A DNA stretch of 64,000 bases, taken from the IMG/VR virus record IMGVR_UViG_2925891887_000001; one strand, written 5' to 3'. The notes beneath the pieces were generated by a model, which saw only the letters and a list, made by a program, of their open reading frames with translations, was not told the DNA's origin and made no database searches. The DNA is from a virus (lineage: Duplodnaviria > Heunggongvirae > Uroviricota > Caudoviricetes). Position 1 is the stretch's first letter. The number at the start of each line of letters is the position of its first letter. The translations under genes were made by a program, and so were the position numbers. Below, piece by piece: positions 40,825 to 58,904 of the stretch.

Positions 40825-41928
40825 ATGAAAAATAGCTTTGACAGAGCACGCGCTGCGGAGAACACCTCAAAAGAGGCGATTGAGTATCTCGAAAGAGCAT
40901 CTCAAATGCAGGCCGTTATGATCTCGCAGGTCAGCAATGACATGAGATTCTCGGACGCATTCATGTTATTCACTCGCTTATCTCTGCTGATAACAAGACG
41001 TCGGCCAGAGATCGCTGTTCATTGTATTTTGATACATGTTTTGCCGCACATTGCCGATGTAAAAGTAAGTGACATTAATAGGTTCATGGTGAACCAACTG
41101 GTCAACCCACTAATACTGGATGGCAAAATTGTTATGGGCCGCCGCGTTTTCTCTCTGATGAAGCAGTTCCTTAGCTGGTGCGCCTTCCAGGGGATGATAG
41201 ACGTGTCACCGTTAAACGATATGTCACTAAACAAAGTTGCCGGTGGCGCAAAGCCCACACCTCGCGAGCGGAAGCTGACCGACGCAGAGGTATGGGTGTT
41301 CTGGAATATATGGGACTACTTCAATGTGTGCGCTGGTACAAAATGGGCGGCCAGGCTGTGTCTTGTATCCGCAAGACGACCTGACGAAGTACTGCGGGCT
41401 AAAAAAAGTGAGTTCAATCTTAAGCGTGGGGTTTGGAATCAAGGCAAGAGGAACAAATCTGCCCGTGAGCATTCGCTGCCTTTAAGCACATTAATGCGCA
41501 CATGTATTGAAGAGTTGTTCGAATACGGTAAAGGCAGCCAGTGGCTCGTGCCTTCGAATAAAAAAATCGGGAAAGACCTTCCTATGTCTAAAGTGGCAAT
41601 AGCCCAGGCATTACGTCGTATCCTGGAACGACCAGAACTGATGGAGCTTGAGCCATTTACACCCCGAGACTTGCGCCGTACTGCGCGTAGTTACTTCCCA
41701 GCATTAGGCATAAGCCAGGAGGTCTCACGCAAAATCATGAACCACAGTCTTGAGGGGATAGATCGAGTCTACGACCGGCACGATTATATGGACGAGATGC
41801 GAGACGCCTTAGAAAGTTTCTCGACGTACATCGCATCAATCGTAGAGCAACCGGATTTAGACGAAATTGACCACAAATTCAAGGGAGATCGTCTATCAAC
41901 AGAGCTTATTCGTGTAAATTTTTCATAG
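40825..41928 (+). CDS. tyrosine recombinase/integrase
   Basis: C-terminal catalytic signature (RDLRRTARSY ... HS..G.DRVYDRHDY); 367 aa. Confidence 0.75.
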   Translation: MKNSFDRARAAENTSKEAIEYLERASQMQAVMISQVSNDMRFSDAFMLFTRLSLLITRRRPEIAVHCILIHVLPHIADVKVSDINRFMVNQLVNPLILDGKIVMGRRVFSLMKQFLSWCAFQGMIDVSPLNDMSLNKVAGGAKPTPRERKLTDAEVWVFWNIWDYFNVCAGTKWAARLCLVSARRPDEVLRAKKSEFNLKRGVWNQGKRNKSAREHSLPLSTLMRTCIEELFEYGKGSQWLVPSNKKIGKDLPMSKVAIAQALRRILERPELMELEPFTPRDLRRTARSYFPALGISQEVSRKIMNHSLEGIDRVYDRHDYMDEMRDALESFSTYIASIVEQPDLDEIDHKFKGDRLSTELIRVNFS

Positions 41929-42309
41929 AGACTTTATGGCCTCAACAACCTTTTGTGATGCGCCTTTCTCTTTACCGAATCGCTCGTTATATGCAGCAAG
42001 AACCTGTTTTTCGTCCTCGTTAAGAGGAGCGGTGCCTTCTTTGTATAAAAATGCTGCGAGTTCAGGTTGGCGTTCTTCCAGCACCATCATCATAAGACGA
42101 CTTGGCTCAATACCCAGCGCCAGCGCCAACGGACGAACCTTATCGATAGGCAAAGGAATTTTGCCACTTTTAATTAAAGAAAGGTTGTTGGCATTTTTAT
42201 AACCAATAAGTCTGGCTATTTGGGCCTGACTCATAGGTGAGGATTCAATCAGCCCTGCGATAAAAGCGGCATAGCGACTTTCTATAAATTCAATCTTGTT
42301 GTCAGACAT
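41923..42309 (-). CDS. HTH (XRE-family) transcriptional regulator
   Basis: Helix-turn-helix segment QAQIARLIGYKNANNLSLIKSGK; divergent from 42560..42772 across an AT-rich intergenic region. Confidence 0.65.
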   Translation of the reverse strand: MSDNKIEFIESRYAAFIAGLIESSPMSQAQIARLIGYKNANNLSLIKSGKIPLPIDKVRPLALALGIEPSRLMMMVLEERQPELAAFLYKEGTAPLNEDEKQVLAAYNERFGKEKGASQKVVEAIKSL

Positions 42310-53780: not shown

Positions 53781-56120
53781 ATGGCAAAAGGAAAATCCGC
53801 ACTGGCACTTGCTCTGAAAAAGAAAATCGGTAGCAACGACGAAATTCAGAAAGTAACTCATTGGATTGATACAGGCTTTCCACCGTTAAACAAAGCTATT
53901 TCTGGTCGTTACGATGGCGGCTTCCCATGTGGTCGTATCGTCGAAGTATTCGGTCCTCCAAGTGCAGGGAAATGTGTTACCGCAGACACCATGCTGCTGA
54001 CGGAGCGTGGAATGGTAACAGTGAAAGAGTTGTTTGAGATTGAAGGGTACAAAGCGACATGCACTACTCGCGATGTAGAGCATAACGTTGGACTCATCAA
54101 TGAAAATGGCGTGATAGAGAAGACCTCACACCTGACATGGAACAACCGTCGCAAATTCAAGCGTATTAAGCTGGCATCAGGCGGTTATATCGAGGCTACG
54201 TTCCGTCACCCAATCCGTGTGGTTGACGACTTAGGTAATGTCGTCTGGCGACATGCTGAAAAAATCAGTGTAGGCGACACGATTCCTTCAATGGTTGGCA
54301 CACATCAATTCGGCGATCAGCACCTGGATGCCAATATCGCAAAACTGATGGGCTATTTAATTGCTGACGGATACGTCGCCTCTGAAAATTCAGTGAATTT
54401 TTCTAACACAGATCCTTTCATCAAGGATGAGTACTACCGCCTCATTTCGCTGGTATCAGACAAGATGCCAGTTACGAGAAAACATAACGGCTCGGAAGAC
54501 CATGTGCTGTTTAGCAAAGAGGTGCGTTCGCTGCTTTTTAAAGAATATGGTCTGGAGTATGAGAAAGCTGCTGGCAAGCAGGTTCCGTTGAGTGTGCGTC
54601 GCGCCAATAGCGAGGCTCAAATTGCATTCCTTCGCGGCTACTTTGAGCTGGAATGCCACGTCAATGATGGTCGCTGCATTGAGGTTGTGAGCGCGAGTGG
54701 GCTGCTGCTACAGCAAATTCGCCTCATGCTCCTGAATCTGGGGATTACGTCAACTATCTCTGAAAAACACGTCGCGGGTTATGAAAATACATATTACCGG
54801 CTGTCATTCAGTGGCTCTAATTACGACCTTTTTCTGTCAACGATTGGTTTCGAATCTCCGGCACGTTTATCAGTGGCAACCAAACGGGACATTGGTTTTG
54901 ACCGCACTTACTCAGGCTATGTTCCGCACATCAGCGGCTTAGTGAAATCACTCTACGAGTCGCTCACCAAGACCACCCGTGAAGACTACGCTCTGGTAGA
55001 CCACGTTATTGGCCGCGGCGATCGTGTCGGAATAGACAAACTGCGAGAAATCTATGTCTCCTTCATTGGCAGAAAGAATCGTTTTAACGAGCATCTGTTT
55101 GCACAACTGGCAGCGGTAATTGGCTCTAACTTGTTCTACGACGAAGTCGTGGCTATTGAGGAAGGTGAAGCACCAACGTTCGACGTAGCGATGCCGGAAA
55201 CACACTCTTTCTGGTCTAACGGGATTATCAGCCACAACACATTCCTTGCAACAGCAGCGATGATCTCCGCTCAAAAACAAGATGGTCTGGCGGTATTCCT
55301 CGATCATGAAAACAGTTTTGACGTTGGCCTGGCTGTAGCCAATGGCCTGAACGCAGATGAGGATGACGGTCAGTGGGTCTACAAACAGCCGGATACCTTC
55401 GAAGACTCCGTAGAGCTGATCGGCACAATCCTCAAGCTGGTGCGCGACGAAGAGCTTATTCCGGAAACAGCCCCTATCTGCATCGTAGCCGACTCTCTGG
55501 CGTCGATGGTTCCGAACTCGAAGGCTGAGAAGTTCGACAAGATGGCAGAAGGCACTGCGAAAGACAAAGATCAGCTGAACATGAACGACAACACGGCGCT
55601 GGCGCGCGCGACAAGTGCGAACTTCCCTACTCTGGCGCTTTGGGCGCGTAAGTACAACGCGTGCATCATCTTCTTGAACCAGGTGCGTACCAAAATTGGT
55701 GTGATGTTTGGCGATCCGACTACGTCTCCGGGTGGCGACTCTCCGAAGTTCTACGCTTCTGTACGTATCCGTCTTGGTGCATCGGTGATGAAGGATGGTA
55801 AAGAGAAGATCGGCCAGGACGTAGGCGCAGAATGCATCAAAAACAAAGTTGCACCACCGTATGGCAAATGCACCTGGAAATTCTACTTCGATCCTACTCG
55901 TGGCCTCGACGTTATCGAATCGCTCGTCGAGTACATGCTGGAAGAAGGATACCTGCCAAAGAACGCCAGCGGGCGAGTTGAAATTGGTGACAAGAAATAC
56001 ACCAAATCGCAGATCGTCGAGATGTATCGGGAGAAGCCACTGGCTGAAATCATTGCGGCTTTGCAGGCAATCGACGACCGAAGAGCAAAAGACAACCCCA
56101 CCGAGTCAGTAGAAGAGTAA
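53781..56120 (+). CDS. recA: RecA recombinase precursor containing an intein
   Basis: Exteins (64 + 293 aa) align to bacterial RecA (GRIVEVFGPPSAGK | TFLATAA..., IIFLNQVRTKIGVMFGDPTTSPGG, KFYASVRIRLG); intein residues begin with Cys and end HN before Thr. Confidence 0.85.
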   Translation: MAKGKSALALALKKKIGSNDEIQKVTHWIDTGFPPLNKAISGRYDGGFPCGRIVEVFGPPSAGKCVTADTMLLTERGMVTVKELFEIEGYKATCTTRDVEHNVGLINENGVIEKTSHLTWNNRRKFKRIKLASGGYIEATFRHPIRVVDDLGNVVWRHAEKISVGDTIPSMVGTHQFGDQHLDANIAKLMGYLIADGYVASENSVNFSNTDPFIKDEYYRLISLVSDKMPVTRKHNGSEDHVLFSKEVRSLLFKEYGLEYEKAAGKQVPLSVRRANSEAQIAFLRGYFELECHVNDGRCIEVVSASGLLLQQIRLMLLNLGITSTISEKHVAGYENTYYRLSFSGSNYDLFLSTIGFESPARLSVATKRDIGFDRTYSGYVPHISGLVKSLYESLTKTTREDYALVDHVIGRGDRVGIDKLREIYVSFIGRKNRFNEHLFAQLAAVIGSNLFYDEVVAIEEGEAPTFDVAMPETHSFWSNGIISHNTFLATAAMISAQKQDGLAVFLDHENSFDVGLAVANGLNADEDDGQWVYKQPDTFEDSVELIGTILKLVRDEELIPETAPICIVADSLASMVPNSKAEKFDKMAEGTAKDKDQLNMNDNTALARATSANFPTLALWARKYNACIIFLNQVRTKIGVMFGDPTTSPGGDSPKFYASVRIRLGASVMKDGKEKIGQDVGAECIKNKVAPPYGKCTWKFYFDPTRGLDVIESLVEYMLEEGYLPKNASGRVEIGDKKYTKSQIVEMYREKPLAEIIAALQAIDDRRAKDNPTESVEE
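53973..55238 (+). mobile_element. intein (422 aa) with LAGLIDADG homing endonuclease domain, inserted in the RecA Walker A motif between K and T
   Basis: In-frame element CVTADTMLL...IISHN followed by +1 Thr; LAGLIDADG-like motifs LMGYLIADGYV and FLRGYFELECHV. Confidence 0.8.
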
Positions 56121-56124
56121 ACAC

Positions 56125-56148
56125 AAGGCGTCCACAGGACGCCTTTTT
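56125..56148 (+). terminator. Rho-independent terminator
   Basis: AAGGCGTCC-ACA-GGACGCCTT hairpin with TTTTT. Confidence 0.7.
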
Positions 56149-56211
56149 ATCTCTTGAAAATATATAAGTACTTACTTATTATTTTCGCATAACAACCACA
56201 TAGGAAAACAC

Positions 56212-56412
56212 ATGATCAAAATCTATCTATTGGCAGTAGCCACAGGCGTTTCAGTGGCTCTCATCTACGGTTTACTGGTTCCGTCGCTGATTTCTACCAA
56301 GAGTGATTTAGCCGTCATGTTTGGAGTTATCGTTGGTTTTGGTGCTCCTGTAATCGGTCTTATTGCTGGTCGTAAGTTTATCAACTCATTAATCAAAGCA
56401 AAGGGGAAATAA
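56212..56412 (+). CDS. small two-helix membrane protein (partner of the SPFH protein)
   Basis: 66 aa, two hydrophobic helices, 4 nt upstream of the SPFH gene. Confidence 0.5.
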   Translation: MIKIYLLAVATGVSVALIYGLLVPSLISTKSDLAVMFGVIVGFGAPVIGLIAGRKFINSLIKAKGK

Positions 56413-56415
56413 GTA

Positions 56416-57246
56416 ATGAAGAAAGGTTTACTTGCAGTTGCTCTGGCGGCTATTTGCACAATGGGTCTTACTGGCTGTGATCGCGTGGAGCCTGGATACG
56501 TTGGCATCAAAGTAAACAAATTAGGTGAAGACAAAGGGATCGGTGAAGTGGTTGGCGTTGGTCGCCAATGGACAGGTCTTAACACCGAACTTTACGTATT
56601 CCCGACCTTCAAACAAATGAAGACCTACGACGAACCGTTCACATTCCAGATGAGTGACGGTACTGCTATTGGTCACAAAATTGGCGTTGCGTATCTGGTT
56701 AATCGTGACAAGGTAACGACGGTGTTCCAGACCTATCGCAAAGGCGTAGACGATATCACCGAATCAGATCTGCGTCAGAAAATTGCCGACTCTCTAAACC
56801 GTTTGGCCAGCCGTATGACCACTGACTCATTTATCGACGGTGGTAAGGCGCAATTGCTGGACAACGCACTGAAAGATATTCAGAAAGAGATGTCTCCGGT
56901 TGGTATTGAGGTACTGAGCCTGTCATGGGTTGGAAAGCCTGATTACCCAAAAACCGTCATTGAATCTATCAACGCCAAAGTAACGGCTAACCAGCGTACT
57001 CTGCAACGTCAGCAGGAAGTTGAACAACGTAAAGCTGAGGCGAATATGCTACGTGAACAGGCTAATGGTGAAGCTGATGCTATCCGTGCTCGTGCGCAAG
57101 CAGAAGCAGACGCCATTCGTCTGCGCGGTGAAGCTCTGCGTCAAAACCCGAACGTTATGGAACTGGAAGCCATCAATAAATGGAATGGCCAGTTACCGCA
57201 GTACATGACTCAAGGGGCTAACACTCCTTTCATTACAGTGAAATAA
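56416..57246 (+). CDS. SPFH/Band-7 (stomatin/HflC-like) domain lipoprotein
   Basis: Lipobox LTGC; SPFH-like core followed by Ala/Glu/Arg-rich helical segment (EADAIRARAQAEADAIRLRGEA). Confidence 0.6.
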   Translation: MKKGLLAVALAAICTMGLTGCDRVEPGYVGIKVNKLGEDKGIGEVVGVGRQWTGLNTELYVFPTFKQMKTYDEPFTFQMSDGTAIGHKIGVAYLVNRDKVTTVFQTYRKGVDDITESDLRQKIADSLNRLASRMTTDSFIDGGKAQLLDNALKDIQKEMSPVGIEVLSLSWVGKPDYPKTVIESINAKVTANQRTLQRQQEVEQRKAEANMLREQANGEADAIRARAQAEADAIRLRGEALRQNPNVMELEAINKWNGQLPQYMTQGANTPFITVK

Positions 57247-57262
57247 CTCCCCTAAAAAGTTC

Positions 57263-57288
57263 AGGCGTCCAGTTGGACGCCTTTTTTA
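57263..57288 (+). terminator. Rho-independent terminator
   Basis: AGGCGTCC-AGTT-GGACGCCT hairpin followed by TTTTTTAT. Confidence 0.7.
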
Positions 57289-57337
57289 TCGCAATTATCT
57301 TATTAAGAAAATAATTTGTTTAAAAGGATAAGAAAAC

Positions 57338-57763
57338 ATGACAGCTATTAAGAAACTCTACGATGCCGCAAACGTGGCTCTGGATGTTATTGATGATGAA
57401 GCAGCAAAAGGCTTTCCTGAACCTGATTGGGCGCATCAGCTACGAAACGCTATCGCAGAAATGACCCCACCAGATCCAACCCCCGAGGAGACAGACTGGC
57501 AGCGATTCATCCGTATGTACGCTCAGGAAATAGGTCCAACGCCAACGGCAGAGCAGGCAATGCTGCTGAAATACTTCAAAGAGGCGGGAGAGGATTTACC
57601 AATTGATGACTCAGCATATTGGTTCCACTGCGCATGGCGTAAGTATGACGTGATATTCACACAAGGCATGGGAAGCAAAGATATGGTTGTGTGGCATCTA
57701 CTCCATATAGACACAGCCGTTGACAGAGTTATTGAACAGTTTTTCCCTAAACAAGAAGATTGA
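57338..57763 (+). CDS. hypothetical protein
   Basis: 141-aa ORF preceded by the AATAATTTGTTT palindrome. Confidence 0.5.
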   Translation: MTAIKKLYDAANVALDVIDDEAAKGFPEPDWAHQLRNAIAEMTPPDPTPEETDWQRFIRMYAQEIGPTPTAEQAMLLKYFKEAGEDLPIDDSAYWFHCAWRKYDVIFTQGMGSKDMVVWHLLHIDTAVDRVIEQFFPKQED

Positions 57764-58094: not shown

Positions 58095-58309
58095 GTTTAC
58101 AGTAAAGTTTATATAAGTTAGTATCTACCTATCATGAAGATTTTTATTGAATACTTGTTACTCATCGTTTCAATAGCTTTTGTCATCGACTGCATTTTCA
58201 CTGGTGTCATTCGTAAAGTCTTTTCCCCGGTGCACGACGTAGTCATAAACGCTTTGGCTATCGTGCTCGTATTTAATTCAGCATTTGATGTAATCAAAGA
58301 GGTGGCAGC

Positions 58310-58645
58310 ATGAAGACCATCCCATTCGCGCTGTTGTTTCTTTCTTCGATCGTTGTGGCCGACACCACTGTTTATCAGTGTGAAATGTCTGTAGCCGACG
58401 TTAAGAATGGCGCTCTTACCGACGTCATAAAAGCACCATATGGAGCGATGGTCGTAGACAGCGGCGACCAGTTCTATGTTGTGCGTGACGATCGAGTGTT
58501 GTCATCCCCATATCTCACAAATCGTAATGGCAAATTAACCGGCGTCGGAGAAGACCACTTCGTATACAACAAATACAAGGGCTTCTATGGCGTTCACGCT
58601 TCTCAGCAAAGCTACCTTTTCGATGACTGCAAGGAGGTTGGGTAA
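58310..58645 (+). CDS. secreted protein with signal peptide, function unknown
   Basis: 111 aa, N-terminal signal peptide (MKTIPFALLFLSSIVVA). Confidence 0.5.
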   Translation: MKTIPFALLFLSSIVVADTTVYQCEMSVADVKNGALTDVIKAPYGAMVVDSGDQFYVVRDDRVLSSPYLTNRNGKLTGVGEDHFVYNKYKGFYGVHASQQSYLFDDCKEVG

Positions 58646-58857
58646 TGGCATTAACACTGGCAGGTCTGGAAATCGAGAAAACAAGCGGCTACTGGCGTGC
58701 TAAGGGTTTCAAGCAGCCTGGCATTCTTGAGCGTCTGGAACGTGAAGATGGGTATATCGTCCACCAGCGGCGTGAATGGCGTATGTACGATCCAGAAACA
58801 GGAAAACTGACTACAAAAGCCGGAACACTTTGGGGTCTGTTAAAGAAAATACACTAA
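58645..58857 (+). CDS. hypothetical small protein
   Basis: 70-aa ORF with ATGA overlap; followed by hairpin 58867..58888. Confidence 0.45.
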   Translation: MALTLAGLEIEKTSGYWRAKGFKQPGILERLEREDGYIVHQRREWRMYDPETGKLTTKAGTLWGLLKKIH

Positions 58858-58904
58858 ATGCAAACTGACTGCGGCACGTTCCGCAGTCATATTTCATAGT
58901 CGTC

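Follow-up and report, generated by a model that had tools for sequence, protein, structure and literature searches.

A small membrane protein and an SPFH lipoprotein form a two-gene cassette in an SSU5-like phage-plasmid

Two genes between copies of one terminator

The DNA analyzed here is a stretch of 64,000 nucleotides from a tailed-phage record (IMGVR_UViG_2925891887_000001), called the window throughout, which is an SSU5-like phage-plasmid. Positions 56212-57246 of the window hold a real, self-contained two-gene phage cassette, in which a gene for a small membrane protein of 66 residues (the partner) is followed on the same strand by a gene for an SPFH lipoprotein of 276 residues (Table 1). 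Only three bases (GTA) lie between the stop codon of the partner and the ATG of the SPFH gene, so that the distance of 4 nt given in an earlier interpretation made from the letters alone (the sequence-only reading) was essentially right. Both open reading frames (ORFs) are preceded by a Shine-Dalgarno-like sequence, the partner by the purine run AGGAAA and the SPFH gene by AGGGGA, the latter being located within the 3′ end of the partner ORF. Over 1.6 kb around the unit, the window was 99.4% identical to Escherichia phage CMS-2020a, 93.6% identical to phage Cyrano, a plasmid-prophage of Escherichia coli LF82, and 79.6% identical to Salmonella phage SSU5.

On either side the pair is bordered by a hairpin with a run of T behind it. 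The left one folds with −17.6 kcal/mol (z = −5.2) and the right one with −15.6 kcal/mol (z = −3.9), and in neither case was any of the shuffled sequences as stable (0/200 each). The stems of both terminators are one sequence: GGCGTCC-N(2-6)-GGACGCC occurs twice in the 64 kb, only here, where 0.00 occurrences are expected. Between the left hairpin and the partner gene, a putative sigma-70-like promoter was recognized, the 26-nt string of which occurs a single time in the window. Both hairpins and the promoter-like site are kept in Cyrano and in SSU5, the latter only ∼80% identical overall, and the promoter is almost invariant in the two phages despite the divergence of the surrounding DNA.

The two genes are considered a discrete cassette because plasmid CP056788, which is 98% identical to the window on both sides, does not contain them and has one terminator at that site. 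In this plasmid the flanking genes are adjacent, and the junction consists of exactly one terminator, the left flank, stem, and loop of which correspond to the left hairpin of the window and the right flank of which corresponds to the right hairpin. The region from ∼56150 to 57288 is accordingly an insertion/deletion cassette with a directly repeated terminator at its two ends. The cassette was also inspected for atypical base composition, and none was found (G+C content of 0.457 vs 0.461). The proposal of the sequence-only reading that the unit is insulated by terminators is thus backed by the hairpins and by the empty-site plasmid, as well as by RNA sequencing of Cyrano (PMC9928086), which is treated below.

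Table 1. Features of the two-gene cassette and of its surroundings (positions in the window).
Feature	Position	Strand	Remarks
Left terminator	56125..56150	+	End of the recA-like gene upstream; left-hand border and repeat copy of the cassette
Stem of left terminator	56125-56145		9 bp, 6 G-C pairs, then T run
Putative sigma-70-like promoter	56154..56182	+	TTGAAA-17-TATTAT, 10/12 consensus matches
Palindrome in promoter spacer	56165-56174		TAAGTACTTA, perfect, 10 bp
Shine-Dalgarno-like run of partner ORF	56202-56207		AGGAAA
Partner gene	56212..56412	+	66 residues, two predicted transmembrane helices
SPFH lipoprotein gene	56416..57246	+	276 residues
Lipobox Cys21	56476-56478	+	L-T-G-C, then Asp22, Arg23 (C-D-R)
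Band_7 match	56482-57042		SPFH residues 23-209
Long helix of the structural model	56950-57144		SPFH residues 179-243
C-terminal motif	57172-57243		SPFH residues 253-276
Right terminator	57263..57288	+	Right-hand border and repeat copy of the cassette
Stem of right terminator	57263-57282		8 bp, 6 G-C pairs, then T run
Recombinase gene with intein	53781-56120		RecA/UvsX-like
Antisense ORF	56265-56585	-	106 residues, probably spurious
One-mismatch copies of TAAGTACTTA	9988, 37319, 42343, 51380		Beside TATCAT-like −10 boxes
Putative repressor gene	41923-42309	-	One TAAGTACTTA-like copy 34 nt upstream
Second envelope-directed gene set	58134-58857		59-, 111-, and 70-residue proteins
Strong hairpin terminator	58866-58889		After the second envelope-directed set

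Upstream of the unit, genes for UvsY-, SSB-, and exonuclease-like proteins and for a RecA-like recombinase are located; downstream follow small genes without assigned function and then RepA. The sequence-only reading was therefore fair in naming a replication region as the setting of the pair, which is surrounded by recombination and replication genes of a phage-plasmid. The recombinase gene encodes an intein with a LAGLIDADG homing-endonuclease domain in the ATP-binding loop (GPPSAGK/C...HN/T), and Pfam returned RecA, LAGLIDADG_3, and Intein_splicing for its product. The orthologous gene of SSU5 has 1,077 nt only, its sequence being unbroken across the insertion point of the intein. An antisense ORF overlapping the partner gene and the 5′ end of the SPFH gene was treated as probably spurious because it is embedded in two strongly supported genes. 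A database variant (P0046, corresponding to 56416-57763 of the window) is a deletion chimera: residues 1-226 of the SPFH protein are joined directly to the downstream DUF7238 protein, the C-terminal motif of the SPFH protein and the right terminator having been removed. The spacer of the putative promoter contains the palindrome TAAGTACTTA, and near copies of it were found at four further places, one of them ahead of a putative repressor gene and one upstream of the SSB gene. Altogether, five such sites are present in the window vs 1.4 expected, a number reached in 2 of 100 shuffles. The palindrome may be a shared operator or the mark of a regulon, a suggestion too weak to be put forward as a claim.

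The SPFH lipoprotein and its membrane partner

When compared with Pfam by hidden Markov model, the SPFH protein matched Band_7 (PF01145) with an E-value of 2.6e-30 and 106.2 bits (cut-off, 23.6), which bears out the SPFH/Band-7 domain proposed in the sequence-only reading. It is a member of PHROG 200 (“lipoprotein”; E = 3e-108). The annotations “serine protease” and “transposase fusion protein,” found in several phage records, were discarded, as Pfam gave SPFH-related matches only. Residues 1-20 form a signal peptide (MKK-GLLAVALAAICTMG-LTG, directly before C21), and because of it the SPFH domain is placed outside the cytoplasm. The residues up to and including Cys21 follow the lipobox pattern [LVI][ASTVI][GAS]C, and lipid modification of the cysteine is predicted. 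A lipobox-like motif was present at 331 of 358 homologous loci. According to the “+2 rule” of E. coli, an Asp after the lipidated cysteine results in retention in the inner membrane. Such an Asp was found at 174 of the 358 loci as well as in the homologs of phages P88 and KpCHEMY26. Given Asp22 at +2 and the absence of a tether behind Cys21, the protein of the window is probably retained at the inner membrane. In eight of the 66 clusters into which the SPFH proteins fall (see below), a hydrophobic helix at the N-terminus takes the place of the lipobox cysteine, a replacement compatible with inner-membrane anchoring.

A monomer model of the SPFH protein was calculated with AlphaFold2 and had a mean predicted local distance difference test score (pLDDT) of 79; the underlying alignment contained 30 homologs and was less diverse than the set of nine distant phage homologs mentioned below. 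In the model, the strands of the SPFH domain begin at the lipobox cysteine without any linker. Strands occupy residues 20-95, helices and a strand extend to residue 176, and a helix of 65 residues follows. The best matches of the model in Foldseek were all cage formers, with HflC/HflK (7vhq), prohibitin, and erlin at the top (E ∼1e-13) and stomatin, flotillin, and the major vault protein also included; the probability was 1.00 for HflK/C, prohibitin, erlin, stomatin, and flotillin. A sequence profile compared with solved structures returned HflK (8e-5), prohibitin-2, and HflC only, QmcA being absent. The predicted fold matches a cage-type SPFH architecture. The most conserved motif of the family, AINKWNGQLPQY..PF..VK, makes up the C-terminal end, and its residues K255, W256, G258, P261, and P271 were invariant in nine distant phage homologs.

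The partner is a member of PHROG 1130 (“membrane protein”; E = 9e-26); no family of Pfam or NCBIfam matched it at E ≤ 0.1. Its hydropathy profile contained two hydrophobic stretches, at approximately residues 1-29 and 31-54, in agreement with the two-helix membrane protein of the sequence-only reading. The N-terminus is basic, and the C-terminal tail is basic and rich in lysine. Because of these basic ends, the positive-inside rule predicts that both termini of the partner are cytoplasmic and that the loop between the helices is periplasmic. This short loop contains P24, L26, and S28; among 52 cluster representatives, P24 and S28 were each conserved in 49 and G38 in 46.

The pairing of the two genes was assessed with 358 collected loci, the SPFH proteins of which formed 66 clusters at 80% identity and 17 at 50%. 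An iterated local profile had to be used for the partner because single-sequence searches are too weak for such a fast-evolving family: a phmmer search with the single partner sequence against 1.84 billion representatives yielded seven matches at E ≤ 0.001, all of them 46-75 residues long. The iterated profile, in turn, matched the ORF immediately preceding the SPFH gene in 52 of the 66 clusters (E ≤ 0.001), with −4 as the most frequent distance between the partner stop and the SPFH start. Beyond these, only four matches were obtained among 5,544 ORF segments, all of them at loci without an adjacent match. One shared the reading frame of the SPFH gene (L220, locus span 1757-2843), one was 914 nt upstream of it (L128), one 454 nt upstream (L009), and one a few hundred nucleotides downstream (L122). 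The pairwise divergences of partner and SPFH protein were correlated (r = 0.29; Mantel test, 0/2000 permutations), the partner evolving much faster (mean identity, 21% vs 45% for the SPFH protein).

Both proteins also occur as one polypeptide. A database protein of 347 residues with eight members (P0049) is a read-through fusion of the partner, the signal peptide with lipobox, and the SPFH domain, and the in-frame match at L220 is of the same kind. The order of parts in these natural fusions fits the topology predicted for the separate proteins, and the fusions may provide existing constructs for structural studies. A model of the P0049 fusion calculated without alignment was of low quality (pLDDT 49) and was set aside. 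The pair also tolerates insertion, because in the Cronobacter phage GAP31 (Vequintavirinae; L006, 2142-3376) an ORF for a non-membrane protein of 54 residues, GAP31_160, separates the partner GAP31_161 from the SPFH gene.

Distribution and expression of the pair

Homologs of the SPFH lipoprotein were found in 413 phage records from many hosts, and a homologous stretch was present in 767 of 5,426 complete E. coli genomes (∼14%), at 418 places on the chromosome and 447 on plasmids. The view of the sequence-only reading that an SPFH module is unexpected in a phage was, given these numbers, overstated. A homologous stretch is also carried by the pMT1 plasmids of Yersinia pestis and by related Salmonella plasmids. 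The carriers belong to groups of virulent phages (N4-like Schitoviridae, Vequintavirinae, Bruynoghevirus, and phiCbK) as well as to temperate groups. A third homolog search, in which the alignment was ordered with distant sequences first, still returned mainly enteric sequences.

In the annotated phages, a small ORF is located immediately upstream of the SPFH gene, usually overlapping its start, and the small proteins align with each other and have the loop motif in common. Such pairs are SSU5_061/SSU5_062, which represent the partner and SPFH families in SSU5, gp11-gp12 of the P2-like phage P88, gp19-gp20 of the N4-like phage Jura, and gp44-gp43 of Burkholderia phage phiE125; a small ORF and an SPFH gene are likewise combined in Klebsiella phage KpCHEMY26 and Aeromonas phage Gekk3-15. 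In P88 the pair is tightly packed among genes of the same strand, between cox and a replication gene; in Jura it is again located between annotated terminators. In each phage examined, the pair was found among genes for recombination, replication, and nucleotide metabolism.

SPFH proteins sharing the C-terminal motif KW[ND]GxLP were also encountered at loci in bacterial genomes (L359-L438), comprising Alpha-, Beta-, Gamma-, and Deltaproteobacteria as well as Bacteroidota, Firmicutes, Nitrospirota, Acidobacteria, and candidate-phyla bacteria. Most of the distant members of this set have neither a lipobox nor a detectable partner.

Transcription of the pair could be followed in the close relative Cyrano, for which RNA sequencing data of strain LF82 are available (PMC9928086, S1 Table; log2(fpkm+5), where fpkm stands for fragments per kilobase per million reads, two replicates). 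After growth in lysogeny broth (LB) overnight, transcripts of the partner gene CYRAN_56 (2.32/2.32) and of the SPFH gene CYRAN_57 (4.30/3.02) were at or near the floor, whereas after 6 h in macrophages they amounted to 7.61/7.70 and 7.25/7.42, respectively (PMC9928086). The neighbors remained low throughout (RecA, 3.1-4.2; CYRAN_58, 2.3-4.2), and CYRAN_56/57 are absent from the morons that the authors list as expressed in LB (PMC9928086). These data support transcription of the pair in Cyrano that is independent of both neighbors and depends on the condition (PMC9928086). Some other Cyrano genes, including those for the capsid and a tail protein, also rise in macrophages (PMC9928086). Regulated, moron-like expression and patchy partial induction of the prophage would both account for the rise of the pair, and the data cannot tell between them.

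A second small envelope-directed gene set is located downstream of the cassette in the window and encodes a hydrophobic protein of 59 residues, a protein of 111 residues with signal peptide, and a Cra-like protein of 70 residues; a strong hairpin terminator follows it. The orthologs in Cyrano, CYRAN_60-62, were approximately at the floor in LB and at 8.3-9.0 after 6 h in macrophages, which is the pattern of the SPFH cassette.

Interpretation and comparison with known systems

The interpretation we prefer, with slightly more confidence than doubt, is that the pair encodes a scaffold of the HflK/C type, built from two components and situated on the inner membrane facing the periplasm, and is carried as an autonomous accessory cassette. 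The cassette would consist of a promoter, two translationally coupled genes, and a terminator. The SPFH protein would be exported, lipid-modified at Cys21, and kept at the periplasmic face of the inner membrane, where SPFH domains, long helix, and C-terminal motif would assemble into a ring or cage like those of HflK/C, prohibitin, and erlin. The partner would be the integral-membrane subunit, with its periplasmic loop docking on the membrane-proximal SPFH domain; it would contribute the transmembrane “fence posts” missing from an SPFH protein that is anchored by a lipid, the two proteins together corresponding to an HflK-like protein split in two polypeptides. The complex may then partition or stabilize a patch of the inner membrane. 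With respect to the physiological role, which is the weakest part of the proposal, we favor that, in the infected cell or the lysogen under stress, the inner membrane is conditioned or protected, possibly with exclusion of incoming phage DNA. The sequence-only reading had suggested that the module modulates membrane microdomains during lysogeny or acts in exclusion, and either role may hold; the literature searched contained no experiment on them.

Several observations weigh against this scaffold. The residue at +2 is Ser in most non-enteric clusters (33/66), so that retention in the inner membrane may not hold for the whole family. The C-terminal 27 residues of the monomer model had a pLDDT below 50. 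The partner was undetectable in phiCbK-like phages and in distant clades (Bacteroidota, Firmicutes, and others), and its profile was positive at only 20 of 80 bacterial genome loci; the SPFH protein can thus exist without the partner. The cassette is dispensable for the phage-plasmid, as indicated by its natural deletion in CP056788. Neither protein matched a defense model of PADLOC-DB 2.0 (E ≤ 1), and experiments with members of the family were not found in the literature searched. Outer-membrane vesicles were reported to contain an HflK/C-like protein encoded by a Pasteurella multocida prophage (PMC9872710); should it be homologous to the phage protein, it would point to the outer membrane.

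The main rival leaves the structure as proposed and exchanges the cargo. As an FtsH modulator or mimic of HflK/C, the phage cage would capture or displace the FtsH of the host on the periplasmic side, and turnover of sigma-32, LpxC, CII-like regulators, and membrane proteins would be altered to the benefit of the phage. In favor of this function, HflK and HflC, the proteins that enclose FtsH in a periplasmic cage, are the closest solved relatives in both sequence and fold; weak NCBIfam matches to hflC and hflK and the annotation of one phage homolog as “putative FtsH membrane protease modulator” point the same way. Lambda CIII provides a precedent for inhibition of FtsH by a phage (PMC1838920). 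However, the HflK/HflC scores are far below the family cut-offs, identity is ∼16-17%, and there is only a single SPFH gene; moreover, many of the carriers are described as strictly virulent, for which a role in the lysogeny decision is irrelevant (PMC8540360). We therefore consider modulation of FtsH rather unlikely, even if it is the most serious competitor.

Less probable still is that the SPFH protein is a lipoprotein of the outer membrane or of vesicles acting in lysogenic conversion, that is, helping the bacterial host, for example with envelope stress or in its interaction with the immune system of the animal host and not serving phage infection. The promoter and terminator of its own, the induction in macrophages in a lysogen (PMC9928086), and the low level of most of the Cyrano genes inspected, including both neighbors (PMC9928086), would be in line with such a function. 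So would the vesicle protein of P. multocida, which signals via Toll-like receptors 1/2 (TLR1/2) and contributes to virulence (PMC9872710), and the residue at +2, which in most non-enteric members is other than Asp. On the other hand, the same pair is found in groups of virulent phages, that of P88 is tightly packed between cox and a replication gene, and the pair of the Cyrano lysogen is not among the genes expressed in LB (PMC9928086). Furthermore, the partner is a protein of the inner-membrane type, and in the lipoprotein of the window Asp directly follows the lipidated cysteine and a tether is lacking.

The sequence-only reading had likened the arrangement to NfeD/stomatin operon pairs. 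The gene arrangement indeed stands, since a small membrane gene is located immediately upstream of the SPFH gene and tightly coupled to it, as in NfeD-SPFH operons, and the QmcA-YbbJ cage is among the Foldseek matches, at rank 37. The likeness does not extend to the proteins: the partner matches neither NfeD nor any Pfam family and leaves little room for a soluble domain, the profile matches contain HflK, HflC, and prohibitin and not QmcA, which sets the SPFH protein apart from the stomatin type, and the QmcA-YbbJ cage points into the cytoplasm (PMC13086221), whereas the phage SPFH protein is predicted to be exported. A true operon of this type, with the small protein as a minimal NfeD promoting assembly of a stomatin-like SPFH protein, is largely refuted and very improbable. 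A spanin-like or lysis-timing pair, of which a small inner-membrane protein together with a lipoprotein is superficially reminiscent (PMC3556154), is just as improbable, because holin, endolysin, and Rz/Rz1 of Cyrano are annotated ∼30 kb away, a full SPFH protein is present and not a short, proline-rich o-spanin, and the pair is located among genes of DNA metabolism in every phage examined.

A bolder version of the preferred scaffold, which we consider rather unlikely, is that the pair constitutes a portable kit in many unrelated phages, virulent and temperate: a periplasm-facing SPFH nanocage composed of a lipid-anchored, HflK/C-like shell and a detachable “fence post” with two transmembrane helices, which might wall off a patch of membrane and thereby trap a host factor such as FtsH or block the DNA of rivals. 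If true, it would represent an uncharacterized, widespread class of phage devices for membrane remodeling or exclusion, with gp19-gp20 of N4 as a tractable model. The gene families themselves are already annotated; the conserved partnership, the fusions, the repeat-bounded cassette, and the independent and condition-dependent transcription were not found described in the literature searched. Through recent cryo-electron microscopy, SPFH cages (HflK/C, prohibitin, flotillin, stomatin, and erlin) have become a focus of membrane biology. The phage module would be a minimal, portable, virus-borne version of these, consisting of one lipid-anchored SPFH protein and one partner of 66 residues, and, being simple, should lend itself to the questions of what is inside an SPFH cage and what viruses gain from it. 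Should it exclude phages or alter tolerance to envelope stress, it would matter for phage therapy and for phage-plasmids in pathogens; should it prove to be accessory and dispensable, its phenotype being only subtle, the cassette would be a well-annotated curiosity.

Among known systems, HflK/HflC of E. coli (PDB 7vhq, 7wi3, and 9cz2) bear the greatest resemblance to the phage protein. They have the SPFH domain on the periplasmic side of the inner membrane, as predicted for the phage protein, and the same order of membrane anchor, SPFH domain, long helix, and C-terminal closure segment; they are also the best match both in structure (∼1e-13) and in sequence among solved structures (8e-5). Unlike them, the cassette encodes one SPFH protein and not a pair of K/C paralogs, its anchor is the lipid of a lipobox and not an N-terminal transmembrane helix, and a separate partner with two transmembrane helices is present. 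The NCBIfam matches are partial and remain below the equivalog cut-offs (hflK TIGR01933, 18.7 vs 159.4; hflC TIGR01932, 30.2 vs 134.4). An HflK/HflC ortholog was ruled out on the grounds of these scores, the single SPFH gene, and the lipid anchor. The systems of QmcA-YbbJ and of stomatin or flotillin with NfeD have in common with the cassette an SPFH gene beside a gene for a small membrane protein, with which its product is probably assembled, and a cage-type fold (8z5g). The QmcA-YbbJ cage protrudes into the cytoplasm (PMC13086221), which is the orientation opposite to that of the phage protein with its export signal.

Small phage proteins of the inner membrane that act in superinfection exclusion, of the type of T4 Imm, occur in virulent and temperate phages; the analogy to the cassette is one of setting only, and no sequence relationship to T4 Imm or other inner-membrane exclusion proteins was found. 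The families of the pair themselves are those of PHROG 200/1130, N4 gp20/gp19, SSU5_062/061, P88 gp12/gp11, and phiE125 gp43/gp44, with the same order and spacing. The genes of the window are ordinary members of PHROG 200/1130 without material difference, and the catalog entries carry no function. With phage morons, the cassette has in common a putative promoter and a terminator of its own, its absence from a 98% identical relative, and, in the Cyrano lysogen, transcription independent of the neighbors (PMC9928086). It differs from them in its ordinary G+C content, in that the Cyrano pair is silent in LB and was not scored as a moron (PMC9928086), and in that the pair of the other phages examined is tightly packed among further phage genes. 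Taken together, the SPFH protein appears, by its predicted structure, closest to HflK/C in placement and architecture, and the cassette resembles a moron in its genetic organization.

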